A stretch of DNA of 64,000 nucleotides, taken from positions 64,001-128,000 of IMG/VR virus record IMGVR_UViG_3300032401_000002; one strand, 5' to 3'. Each line of letters begins with the position of its first letter. Position 1 is the stretch's first letter. Shown one piece after another: positions 1 to 63,046 of the stretch. A program made the position numbers and the translations under genes. Under the pieces are notes generated by a model. It was given only the letters and a program-made list of their open reading frames with translations. It did no database searches and had not been told where the DNA came from. Source of the stretch: a virus.

Positions 1-464
1 GCTACGCGCTGAGCCAGGAGGATACTTTCAGCGTAGACGATGACCGGGTCAGGTTTGGAAGAGTTCTGTGCCCAACGAAGCTGAAGAGCGCCTGCTGTGA
101 CACTTGTACGAACGAGGCCCTCCACCACAGTCAGGGCTGGAGCATCAGTGCCATCCAGCACGGAAGTCGATCCCGGCAAGATCATCTTGGGATCAAGAGA
201 CGTGTACCAGTAACAATAGGAGCCAACGGGTACCGTCAAGTCGAGCTTGAGATCGGTCTTCTTCTTGGCTGACCAAATCAGTCGTAGCTCGAAGAGCCAT
301 GTGGTGCTATACGGAAGGGTGGACGACAAGTGGTCGTCGGCTTGGAGAGTTGTTGACGACACTACTTGCTCGTTGACGGGCTTGCGGACAAAGACGAAGG
401 GCATACCCGGCCCCTGCGGGCCGGGCACCCCTTGTGGCCCGCGCATCAGGCCGATTAGGCCCAC
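1..464 (-). CDS. Minor tail/fibre protein with short collagen segment (runs off the window edge; third piece of the split fibre locus)
   Basis: Not in the ORF track. My translation from GTG 464 is MGLIGLMRGPQGVPGPQGPGMPFVFVRKPVNEQVVSSTTLQADDHL...GALQLRWAQNSSKPDPVIVYAESILLAQRV, open to position 1. It has GXY triplets followed by a beta-rich domain typical of actinophage minor tail C-termini. Confidence 0.7.
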   Translation of the reverse strand, partial: MGLIGLMRGPQGVPGPQGPGMPFVFVRKPVNEQVVSSTTLQADDHLSSTLPYSTTWLFELRLIWSAKKKTDLKLDLTVPVGSYCYWYTSLDPKMILPGSTSVLDGTDAPALTVVEGLVRTSVTAGALQLRWAQNSSKPDPVIVYAESILLAQRV

Positions 465-643
465 GTACCGCCGACCTTGGTGTAGACATCGCCGGTGTCA
501 GTGCGGAGGTAGAAGTCTCCGTTGACACCGAGCGTGTCATTGGGCACGGTTGTTCCGAAGTACCACACAGAACCGGGTGCTCCCGGTGCTCCAGGAGCGC
601 CAGTCGCTCCAGGTGTGCCGCTTAGGTTTCCGATCAAGCCCAT
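455..643 (-). CDS. Small collagen-like fibre module (GAPGAPG + W..G..P....G..GDFYL repeat)
   Basis: 62 aa with GXY triplets and the same repeat found in 61559..63046. AAGGAGG lies 7 nt before the ATG. Confidence 0.65.
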   Translation of the reverse strand: MGLIGNLSGTPGATGAPGAPGAPGSVWYFGTTVPNDTLGVNGDFYLRTDTGDVYTKVGGTWA

Positions 644-909
644 GATCCGCCCTCCTTCATGTAGATGTTCGTTGTTGCTGTGTCGAGGTAGAAGTCTCCA
701 TCAGAGCCTACCGCGTCACTTGGCACTCCAGTACCGGAATGCCAATATGGTGGGTATGCGACCCATAAGCCCTTGAATTGCAGCAAGCAGCGCCGCACTT
801 CGGGATCGTCCAGGTCAACCGTGGCGAGAGATCCGTCACGGGGAATCTTGGTCTTTCCTATGCGAAGTGGTGTGCGGGAGAGATTGGCGACACGTAGCGG
901 CGTTACCAT
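634..909 (-). CDS. Small virion/fibre module ending in WHSGTGVPSDAVGSDGDFYLD repeat
   Basis: 91 aa. The C-terminal repeat is homologous to those in 455..643 and 61559..63046. Confidence 0.65.
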   Translation of the reverse strand: MVTPLRVANLSRTPLRIGKTKIPRDGSLATVDLDDPEVRRCLLQFKGLWVAYPPYWHSGTGVPSDAVGSDGDFYLDTATTNIYMKEGGSWA

Positions 910-965
910 GCAGTCTCAGCGTAGCCGGGCCTCCACCAGGAGTCCCCCTGAAGGGGTAACTCATA

Positions 966-60228: not shown

Positions 60229-61559
60229 GCCGACGTATCCCAGGTGTTGCTAATCTCTACGCAAGCCACGCCGCCCGTTCCGAAGATCTTGATGATCATG
60301 AAGGTGCGCCCAGCGAACTCGGTGCCCGCTGCACCCACGAACGTGTCACCATCAACGACACCCGCAACGGGGTGCAAGAACTGATACAAGCCCCGCAGAT
60401 ACCCACGACGCTGGTTGACGGGAGTTGCCGTGAATCCATGCGTGTAGACGCGACTCAGGTAGAGCGCGCCATCGACTGGGTTGGGGAACGGACACGTCCC
60501 TGAGAACGCGGTTGATCCACTGCTCATAGCAGGATCGCCCATCTTCTGGAAGGCTTCAGATCCACCCAGGCCGTGGTAAGCTCTTGCCCAGTAATGCCCA
60601 CCCAAGGATGAACCTATGAGTATAACTAGCCCACCCAAGCACTCAACAGAGGCGACCACTGTGGCTACGTTCTCTGTGTCTCGTGCGATAAGGGCTGTCT
60701 TGAATCCATCGCCCGACAAGTAAGAGTAGATCTCGCCGAACATGAACGATGTGTATTGGCCCCCGGCCTCCGACTGGATGAAGACGTATACGGTACGCTC
60801 GTCTGCAACAACGTACCAAATGCGGGCTGCCTGGTTGGTGCCCGCCACGGCCTTGCGAGCGTACATATTGGTTGCCCTTTGAGTCGTGGTCGGGAACTGG
60901 CCGGTGCCTACCGTGGCGGAAGTCGCTACCTCGAAGCCGCTCACTCTGGCCTCAGTCGAAAGACCGGCACCAGGAGCGTTGTCCAACACGTTGAGATAGA
61001 ACTGGTTTCCCGCTCCTTGGCGATACATGGCCACATTGGTGCCAGAGAAGGGCTTCGTCCAGCCTGCTCCGACTGTAGTGTCCGTCCCTGATCCGCCAGT
61101 CAGCGTGGCACCGCTTAGTGTGATCTGAGCCGCGCTCTTAGAGATCGCGATGGAGTTTCCTGCTGTGCCACCCTTGTACGCCGTCAATGTCAGAACACTC
61201 GACGTTAAGGCAGACACGAAGACGTTGGTCTGCTGAGTCGTGCCCGTTCCGTAGTTGGTGTTACGGACACCAGAATCGGCAATGGCCGCAGCCAGGTTCG
61301 ACAAGTTGGTGGCTGCCGACACACCGATAAGAACCTGGTTGGCGCTCGGCGTCAGCGCCGTCTTCCAGGTGTACGTGATGCCGTCAATCGTGATGGTATC
61401 TCCGTCCGACACTGTGGTGCCGACAGTAACAGTGGCCGAAGCGCGAGTTGATCCATACCCGTTTACCAAACAGGCATCAAGAAGCTGGGTGAGAGCGCCA
61501 GCATGAGAAGTGACGATTGGTGCGTTAGTGTCGGTTGACTTGTAGACCCTTACGGTCAT
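60225..61559 (-). CDS. Virion structural protein, paralogue A1 (with ~125 aa insertion)
   Basis: 'MTVRVYKSTDTNAP...LLDACLVNGYG[insertion]GAGWT...RGYLRGLY...WDTSA'. Confidence 0.7.
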   Translation of the reverse strand: MTVRVYKSTDTNAPIVTSHAGALTQLLDACLVNGYGSTRASATVTVGTTVSDGDTITIDGITYTWKTALTPSANQVLIGVSAATNLSNLAAAIADSGVRNTNYGTGTTQQTNVFVSALTSSVLTLTAYKGGTAGNSIAISKSAAQITLSGATLTGGSGTDTTVGAGWTKPFSGTNVAMYRQGAGNQFYLNVLDNAPGAGLSTEARVSGFEVATSATVGTGQFPTTTQRATNMYARKAVAGTNQAARIWYVVADERTVYVFIQSEAGGQYTSFMFGEIYSYLSGDGFKTALIARDTENVATVVASVECLGGLVILIGSSLGGHYWARAYHGLGGSEAFQKMGDPAMSSGSTAFSGTCPFPNPVDGALYLSRVYTHGFTATPVNQRRGYLRGLYQFLHPVAGVVDGDTFVGAAGTEFAGRTFMIIKIFGTGGVACVEISNTWDTSA

Positions 61560-63046
61560 TACTGCCCCTTACCTTCGAGAGTGACTGTCCATACGCTTGG
61601 GCCTATACCCACGCTCGTCCAGTTGAGACGAACTAGCTCTCCAGAGGTTACGGTGCCGAGGCTCGTCGTTATGACGTGCTCGGCTACCCCTGCGGCTAGC
61701 GTCATGGTTGATACAGTGGTGGGCGTGAATGCGCCACCACCTGGTGACTTCTGTAGCTGAATTGTCGTAGCTGGGCTACCCGTGACGGCCACATTCTCGA
61801 CTCGGAGCACGAGTCTCTGGAGGTTGTACGTCTTAGATACACCGTTCTCGTACGGGATACGCCAAACTCCACCGGCAGGCCCTAGACCCGCAGGCACTGC
61901 ATCGCCCTGCCACAGCACGGACAAGTTGGTCTTCGGGACGATGTTGGCAACCAGCACCCAGACTCCACCCGACTTGTTGTATACGTCGCCGTTGGATGTG
62001 TCGAGGTAGTTGTCGCCCTCTAGCCCAAGACTGTTCGACGGGACGCCACTTCCGGTGAACCACTTGGTGCCTCGGGGTGGTGCCAAAGGTGTGTGAATGT
62101 GTGATACATGAGTACCACCAGAGTGAACGAAGTGGATTGTCTTGTTCGAGTTCGAGTCGGTAACCGCATACACCTTCACTACGATGCGATCAGTGGTGGC
62201 TACAGGTGTCCCCACAGTCGTGACGTACCCTAGATCAGACTGAAGCGTGACCGTTGTATCGTTGATGTCGCCAGAGTAGATGCTGAAGATCTCTGTCTCG
62301 GTGCCGCCAACCGTTCTCGTGTAGACACGGAAGCGAAGCTGGGAAATCTGAGCCGCATTCGATACGTATCTGTAGAAGCTAAACTCCCACAGTCCAGGCG
62401 GGATCTGGTTTCCCGTGTTGAGATCATCAGACGTGATGTACGAGTCGAGAAGGACTTCTCCACTTGCGTTCGTTATGGTTACCTGATCATCATCTTCGGC
62501 CACCTGGGTGGGCGTTGTGGACAGGGTCACGTAAGCAGGAACCGCAACGTCGGCTGTGTCCTGGAAGAACAACAATCTGCCTGTGGTCGAACCCGTTGCT
62601 CCAGTGGCACCAGTCGGGCCTTTGATGTTCGCCACCAAAGTGTATGCCCCCAACACGCGCTCGTACACGTCACCAGTTACAGAATCTAGGTAGTAGTCTC
62701 CGTCTACGCCCAGTCCGTTCGAGGGCGTACCCGACCCCGTACGCCAGACCGTGCCGTCCATACCGATGATACCGTCAGCGCCCGGTGGCCCCTTGATGTT
62801 GGCCGTCAGAACATAGACCCCGCCAGTCTTCTCGTACACGTCGCCGTTGGTCTCGTTAAGGTAGAAGTCACCGTTGACTCCGAGACCATTCGACGGCACA
62901 CCGGGGCCTGAGCGCCATGCTGATCCGCCCCCGCCTCCCCCACCGACACCAAGGTCTTCGAGGGCTTCCTGGATGCCGTCGATCATCGTGCCGACGTAGG
63001 GGATTCCCGTCCATGGGTTGGGGACTGAGATGTAGGGTAATGCCAT
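61559..63046 (-). CDS. Fibre protein with three W..G.G.PSN.LG..GD.YL repeats and short collagen segments
   Basis: 495 aa with repeats plus GPPGADG and GPTGATG. Confidence 0.7.
   Translation of the reverse strand: MALPYISVPNPWTGIPYVGTMIDGIQEALEDLGVGGGGGGGSAWRSGPGVPSNGLGVNGDFYLNETNGDVYEKTGGVYVLTANIKGPPGADGIIGMDGTVWRTGSGTPSNGLGVDGDYYLDSVTGDVYERVLGAYTLVANIKGPTGATGATGSTTGRLLFFQDTADVAVPAYVTLSTTPTQVAEDDDQVTITNASGEVLLDSYITSDDLNTGNQIPPGLWEFSFYRYVSNAAQISQLRFRVYTRTVGGTETEIFSIYSGDINDTTVTLQSDLGYVTTVGTPVATTDRIVVKVYAVTDSNSNKTIHFVHSGGTHVSHIHTPLAPPRGTKWFTGSGVPSNSLGLEGDNYLDTSNGDVYNKSGGVWVLVANIVPKTNLSVLWQGDAVPAGLGPAGGVWRIPYENGVSKTYNLQRLVLRVENVAVTGSPATTIQLQKSPGGGAFTPTTVSTMTLAAGVAEHVITTSLGTVTSGELVRLNWTSVGIGPSVWTVTLEGKGQ

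Follow-up and report, generated by a model that had tools for sequence, protein, structure and literature searches.

The host range of phages is set by their tail fibres, and fibres that are the product of several genes are hard to annotate and to engineer, how their pieces join being seldom known. Multi-protein fibres (T4 gp34-37), collagen stalks with C1q-like heads (BclA) and tiny collagen trimers (SPP1 gp12) are already known. Non-covalent chains are formed by chaperone-usher pili, in which each subunit lacks a strand and receives it from the N-terminal extension of the subunit that follows, and programmed frameshifts are found in phage structural genes such as lambda G/GT, SPP1 gp17.1* and T7 10A/10B. 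The pieces of the T4 long tail fibre are large, unrelated to those of the locus described here, and have neither collagen tracts nor a repeated identical joint; we know of no description of the T4 joints as one small domain cut between two genes. Like the fibre proposed below, the T4 fibre comprises several gene products placed end to end (gp34-gp35-gp36-gp37), of which the distal one binds the receptor, part of this description being given in PMC5537660. SPP1 gp12 is a 64-aa collagen-like accessory trimer of the capsid (PMC6316719). No description was found in the literature searched of a small domain cut between genes in which the next protein gives the last strand and the joint is used twice in series.

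The window analysed here (64,000 nt in total) corresponds to bases 64001-128000 of an IMG/VR virus record of 150,167 bp with 57% G+C, and its source is a large phage from sediment. Large minor-tail and fibre genes run along the first 23 kb of the window on the minus strand, and this run is closed by three small minus-strand genes, named A, B and C. Here it is proposed that A-B-C are three separately translated, putatively coupled pieces of one collagen-like tail fibre, in which A would be the proximal part, B would lengthen it by a short stretch of collagen, and C, at the distal end, would have a collagen stalk tipped by a TNF/C1q-like head that binds the receptor. A and B would end in a beta mini-domain of ~35 residues without its last strand (the socket, ...GG-x-W), and B and C would begin with the missing strand (the plug, M-G-L-I-G-...), so that trimers could dock end to end with no peptide bond between them. 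A separately initiated, strand-donating and non-covalently chained fibre with such plug-and-socket joints is the best reading of the locus, and a probable one. The features are as follows.

634..909, minus strand: gene A, 91 aa, with a unique N-terminal part of ~50 aa, then the motif mini-domain (socket) and a W-A-stop end.
651..657, minus strand: Shine-Dalgarno sequence of gene B, AAGGAGG, 7 nt before the ATG at 643..641, doubling as the K-E-G codons of A.
634..643, minus strand: junction 1, a 10-nt overlap in which the ATG of B consists of the last base of A's Ser codon and the TG of Trp, followed by the TGA of A.
455..643, minus strand: gene B, 62 aa, with the plug strand (residues 1-9), five Gly-X-Y triplets, the motif mini-domain (socket) and W-A-stop.
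455..464, minus strand: junction 2, a 10-nt overlap in which the GTG of C (464..462) lies over B's Thr and Trp codons, followed by the TAA of B.
464 to 1, minus strand: gene C, 155 aa, with the plug strand, four Gly-X-Y triplets and a C-terminal, predicted all-beta TNF/C1q-like head.
61559..63046, minus strand: comparator fibre protein of the same phage, 495 aa, with three intact motif copies, each followed by an x-L-x-A-N-I strand in the same chain.

The ends of A (...GGSWA-stop, TCA TGG GCT TGA) and B (...GGTWA-stop, ACG TGG GCC TAA) and the in-frame starts reported in the initial annotation were reproduced, and both junctions fit the common sequence TGGGCYTRATCGG. Each pair of genes overlaps by 10 nt in a -1 relation because the start takes the last base of Ser or Thr together with the TG of Trp. 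The AAGGAGG ahead of gene B (657..651) recurs with identical spacing in two lineages described below, L011 and L014, while junction 2 has the runs AAGG (478..475, 10 nt before GTG) and GGCGG (472..468, 3 nt before GTG), which make a weak Shine-Dalgarno-like signal. The stop of gene C lies just past the window start, at most 4 nt beyond it. The 91-aa gene A was also called in independent assemblies and in the P0168 lineage; in L011, L014 and L020 its place is taken by shorter A-like genes.

Automatic annotation hides the three-piece structure, as gene callers disagree on identical DNA: gene A was missed in 23 contigs (L008-L010 and 20 more), where C was started at Met7 (149 aa) and not at the overlapping GTG. 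Against the Pfam collagen family PF01391, B scores 14 bits where the cut-off is 27.2, a consequence of its having no more than five triplets; P0179 and P0167, homologues of greater length, reach 34.9 and 32.4 bits. A scan for sigma-70 promoters and terminators around A-B-C gave nothing convincing. The 56-nt spacer ahead of gene A (910..965) contains a short CCCC/GGGG hairpin, and a TG insertion is present behind 965 in a close relative (X21). The gene after C (L001:1..1414 region) encodes 493 aa and is followed by a T4 rIIB-like gene on the opposite strand; the likeness between its N-terminus and that of A is not significant (E 0.28).

The module that ends A and B has ~35 residues and reads W-x-x-G-x-G-x-P ... 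G-D-x-Y-L ... G-D-V-Y-x-K-x-G-G-x-W. In the 495-aa protein, the x-L-x-A-N-I strand after each intact copy is followed by Gly-X-Y triplets or by the C-terminal domain, and B and C start with exactly this strand. No Pfam family covers the module, hmmscan of seven motif-bearing proteins gave no match to PF19079 (CFSR) at E up to 10, and a PDB sequence search with the intact repeats returned nothing at E up to 1; the CFSR link comes only from a low-confidence structural lead in the Atlas (TM 0.67, the model having a pLDDT of 0.59). PHROGs assigns the proteins to tail fibres. The 495-aa protein also has a middle beta domain, and a similar middle-domain-plus-motif end is seen in L012, whose upstream protein matches it by BLASTP across the motif region (2e-13) but is split from its C-terminal part; the two may be the unsplit and split members of a pair belonging to a second fibre type.

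The three-gene form of the locus is not an assembly error. The 601 bp across both junctions are identical in seven assemblies from different samples, and the A-B-C locus is present on 35 contigs from JGI, ENA and Logan assemblies; three apparent variants of C proved to be one sequence with different start calls, and the window phage population is clonal. A contig ~96% identical to the locus (X21, from a 2025 freshwater-sediment run of another study) has no indel across both junctions, and third codon positions hold five of its six substitutions in B and likewise five of six in C. The initial annotation had named a fourth G, and with it a homopolymer error, as what would overturn its reading, but every assembly seen carries the three-G form. 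It is thus highly improbable that the locus is the decaying remnant of a fibre gene disrupted by two frameshift mutations, or an artefact of assembly or of a homopolymer. Fused relatives do differ by one G in a short G run and some gene callers skip gene A, but the seven identical assemblies and 35 contigs, the third-position bias in B and C of the ~96% relative, the retention of the split in lineages whose C is only 23% identical and the lack of any further accumulated stop or frame break all stand against such an origin.

Megablast with the locus gave no match among GenBank phages, no loci related to C or to the 680-aa neighbour were found in viral contigs, and a word-index search with C among proteins of similar length returned only C itself. 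The junction DNA patterns had no match in viral contigs and the pattern had four in genome contigs, all by chance and with no motif upstream; L013, a candidate split relative from the metagenome scan, was also a chance match. Among the sequencing runs listed, no RNA run carrying the locus was found.

The initial annotation had advised looking for the same split in homologues, and it was found in the diverged lineages L011, L014, L012, L020 and the contig of P0168. The pieces of L011 have 69, 68 and 184 aa and overlap twice by 10 nt; both junctions show W-A-stop, with an ATG behind AAGGAGG at junction 1 and a GTG at junction 2. The B of L011 is 57% identical to that of the window, and its head piece C' is a full-length homologue of the window C at 23% identity. 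L014 is a relative of L011 with GTG at junction 1, and beside its A-like gene (L014:413-850, minus strand) lies a resuscitation-promoting-factor/transglycosylase-like protein, the pattern being judged by eye. The contig carrying P0168, which is 69% identical to B, encodes 91, 68 and 156 aa with two 10-nt overlaps. In L012, an upstream protein of at least 279 aa ends in ...GGTWA-stop and is overlapped by a 125-aa GTG gene that begins with the plug. In L020 the split is kept with a rebuilt junction 2, in which ...W-T-stop (TAG) is followed after 3 nt by a GTG in the same frame; in this case the start is placed differently, and C is the last base of the codon ahead of W.

B homologues with the same ends have 57-69% identity, and a profile search with B-type sequences gave ~16 more stand-alone proteins (65-90 aa) that resemble B and share its two ends; in one subclass of these B-like proteins the cut falls a few residues earlier, before the Trp. 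A three-piece set with spacers of 2 and 9 nt (79, 78 and 193 aa) is present in L024-L026. This collagen fibre set of the second cut class (L024:2440-3830, also in L025 and L026) has a small-terminase-like gene on one side and the genes of the large terminase and portal on the other, which is an unusual location for fibre genes. In all lineages examined, the genes follow one another as socket, plug-socket and plug-head. The same cut occurs at the same repeat position in independent diverged lineages, and the junction pattern is thus beyond chance; the split is old and, judged by this conservation, selected. For the L011/L014 lineage, the resuscitation-promoting-factor/transglycosylase-like protein hints at an actinobacterial host.

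Two explanations of the locus had been offered in the initial annotation: tandem programmed -1 frameshifts giving nested fibres, or re-initiated pieces that complete one another's domains. In the former, a shift at U-GGG-C, alone or together with re-initiation, would fuse A to B and B to C. The nested sizes of ~91 and ~151 aa stated for it hold; the third, given as >300 aa, is not much longer than 300, since gene C has 155 aa and ends just past the window start, so that the fused chain has ~306 aa. Both window junctions do have the -1 relation, and the shifted readings, G-L-I-G-N-L-S-G and G-L-I-G-L-M-R-G, are in register with the strand after the intact repeats of the 495-aa protein, as had been noticed. 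Furthermore, fused relatives show that a continuous chain is functional, and a stop lies two codons past the would-be shift site at all seven overlapping junctions, where a stop in the A site can favour shifting. However, no slippery heptamer (X XXY YYZ) is present at the seven overlaps, all of which read NCR TGG GCN TRR, and a -1 slip would leave Trp-tRNA or Ala-tRNA mispaired either at two positions or in the middle one. The bases round the would-be shift site vary at synonymous positions. Folding of five junctions gave no shared downstream RNA structure or spacing (z-scores -0.16 to -2.23), and the one strong downstream hairpin starts ~20 nt away and is absent in L011.

The geometry of the relatives also speaks against fusion. 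At junction 2 of both L020 and L024 the next gene is in the same frame behind the stop, and junction 1 of L024 has a 2-nt spacer, so that no -1 shift could connect these pieces, and still the split persists. An odd phage tRNA forcing the shift was considered and rejected, as all 39 phage tRNAs, which form one array outside the window (G000:C1:49483-56537, ARAGORN), have ordinary three-base anticodons. The conserved starts and Shine-Dalgarno-like runs would have no role if frameshifting made the products. The frameshift systems of lambda G/GT, SPP1 gp17.1* and T7 10A/10B are similar in that late-gene frames overlap and C-terminally extended forms are possible, but slippery sites are present in them, and in those of lambda-like tails the frame relation is conserved; A-B-C shows neither feature. 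The comparison of junctions argues for pieces that are separately initiated, and frameshifting is rejected as the main mechanism, being quite improbable; low-level frameshifting may yield a trace of fusion product.

Separate initiation accounts for what is conserved at the overlaps. A start codon is kept at seven of seven overlapping junctions, ATG or GTG being always present because the base before TGG is A or G. The Shine-Dalgarno-like sequence upstream is AAGGAGG, 7 nt off, at junction 1 of the window and of L011 and in L014, and AAGGNNGGNGG elsewhere; the K-x-G-G codons make a purine-rich run of this type at the right distance. The upstream stop follows 7 nt after the downstream start at the overlaps. 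A start and a Shine-Dalgarno-like run within the upstream gene, near its stop, are the features of translationally coupled overlapping genes, and A-B-C would be coupled in this way. The stop after W-A is made with CTA, GTA or TTG-A, and CTA and GTA are rare codons (11% and 14% usage), which points to selection for a nearby stop, as with coupled genes, although the frameshift model predicts the same.

The whole arrangement also exists in fused form. P0017, on L021, is one ORF that encodes collagen, the motif, W-G-Q-S-G-N-I-T-G, collagen and a head, and is 69% identical to C', the head piece of L011, and the open ORF of L022 has the whole arrangement fused with a head of the window type. P0017, L022 and the 495-aa protein share with A-B-C the motif mini-domain, the following strand and the collagen tracts, and P0017 and L022 also the head family; in them, however, the strand is covalently continuous with the domain, whereas in A-B-C and its kin the chain is interrupted at this point and translation starts anew. 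The joint of P0017 reads GCA TGG GGC, compared with TGG GC in the split forms, a difference of one G (TGGGGC versus TGGGC), and these sequences bear out the attention paid to the G run in the initial annotation, although as an evolutionary relation between fused and split forms and not as a sequencing error.

The cut site would be set by the codons of the motif itself. K-x-G-G is encoded as AAG-GNN-GGN-GGN, which is Shine-Dalgarno-like, and an A or G before the Trp TGG gives ATG or GTG, so the domain's own codons (K-x-G-G-x-W) would pre-adapt the site for gene fission. Loss of one base in the TGGGGC of a fused ancestor would then give a viable two-gene form, rescued at once by re-initiation because the motif codons provide both ribosome-binding run and start, and for this reason the cut would recur at the same place, twice in this locus. 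In L011, B and C have nearly the same first 24 residues, so B-type modules have also spread by tandem duplication, from junction to junction. P0089 was discarded as a short head-only split form, because the call starts at an internal Met of a collagen ORF from a bacterial genome, which is at least 707 aa long. A bacterial assembly (GCA_022180725.1, L023:2-2125) encodes a collagen-like protein of at least 707 aa with near-perfect repeats and the same TNF/C1q-like head family, 37% identical to C; this gene is at a contig end, beside housekeeping genes.

Modelling of the pieces as a complex, also suggested in the initial annotation, was carried out for three copies each of A and B. The predicted complex has a median ipSAE of 0.68, whereas the best of three controls had 0.00; among reference pairs, 58 of 80 solved complexes attained the mark, as did 2 of 110 mismatched pairs. 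Small (shallow) alignments were used for the prediction; at least 97% of contacts are shared between its runs, with a pLDDT of 76 for the partner. In the predicted interface, residues 1-9 of B are placed against residues 75, 77, 79-86 and 89-91 of A as antiparallel strands, with the pairs A83-B3, A81-B5 and A80-B6-7, and contacts are also made to a second chain. This agrees with what the fused relatives imply and speaks for likeness rather than being proof of binding, as the prediction may pass because the two halves resemble contiguous relatives. Re-initiated, strand-donating pieces fit all the data and find support in the conserved starts and Shine-Dalgarno-like runs, in the fused relatives, where strand and domain are contiguous, and in the complex prediction with its clean controls. 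The pieces would dock physically through these strands, and the order on the virion would be A-B-C.

The same three genes could also be made separately without A and B being chained to C, as accessory or decoration proteins or assembly helpers that share the fibre motif. Small stand-alone collagen-like trimers of this kind exist, such as SPP1 gp12, whose 64-aa protein decorates capsids (PMC6316719), the L024-L026 set lies between terminase and portal genes and not among tail genes, and the docking of A and B is predicted. SPP1 gp12 resembles B in its size of ~60 aa and its short Gly-X-Y tract and indicates that a stable, functional stand-alone trimer is possible; unlike B, it binds capsids and has no plug or socket motif. 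Such an unchained arrangement is nevertheless rather unlikely. The cut is exactly where fused relatives continue into the next strand, the order socket, plug-socket, plug-head holds in all lineages examined, it is the plug strand itself that the prediction places at the interface, while the controls score 0.00, and the locus ends a run of minor-tail and fibre genes. SPP1 gp12 is not known to be related to B in sequence.

The strand donation proposed for the chained fibre is similar to pilus donor-strand complementation by analogy only. Pilus subunits are monomeric and Ig-like, lack strand G and need a periplasmic chaperone and an usher, whereas A-B-C would form trimers joined by a short beta motif between collagen tracts, with no chaperone evident. 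Nor would a phage fibre be expected to have an Ig-like pilin fold, a chaperone or an usher. A wider reading takes the joint as a universal, self-compatible connector: the plug of B would fit the sockets of both A and B, giving A-B(n)-C fibres of variable length, heads could pass between phages through recombination at the conserved junction, and a one-base change in the G run would toggle between covalent and non-covalent forms. This is unlikely, and the adjustable fibre length put forward in the initial annotation is speculation; if true, the connector would give virus fibres a trimeric equivalent of pilus donor-strand exchange that needs no chaperone.

The AlphaFold2 model of C, from a 77-row alignment, has a pLDDT of 92.4 and shows a 12-strand beta-sandwich behind a short collagen tract. 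Foldseek with this model returned PLTL, BC2L-C (TNF-like lectins), Pgp3, BclA, C1q and phage receptor-binding domains (TM 0.45-0.60 by query, probability 1.00), so that C would be a collagen-stalk TNF/C1q-like tip, and its head is predicted to be a C1q/TNF-like jelly-roll, at the fold level only. The head family has 4126 members at E up to 0.001, with the domain C-terminal in nearly all of the 150 matches listed. As in BclA of Bacillus anthracis and the C1q/TNF-like family (PDB 1wck, 2r6q, 4ous, 9ib7), a collagen stalk is followed by a trimeric jelly-roll head, which in C is predicted; however, C has no detectable sequence similarity to them (6-14% identity), and BclA is a single chain and not three gene products. 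From the predicted fold, C is likely a receptor binder.

The joint described here is recognisable from its socket (...GG-x-W) and plug (M-G-[LV]-[IV]-G-N-I) and is found fused or split in many phages. An annotation rule would follow, by which small 'hypothetical' collagen-like genes are linked into one fibre, and such overlaps should not be called frameshift sites or pseudogenes. For the phages that carry it, the joint would be a natural break point for swapping receptor-binding heads.
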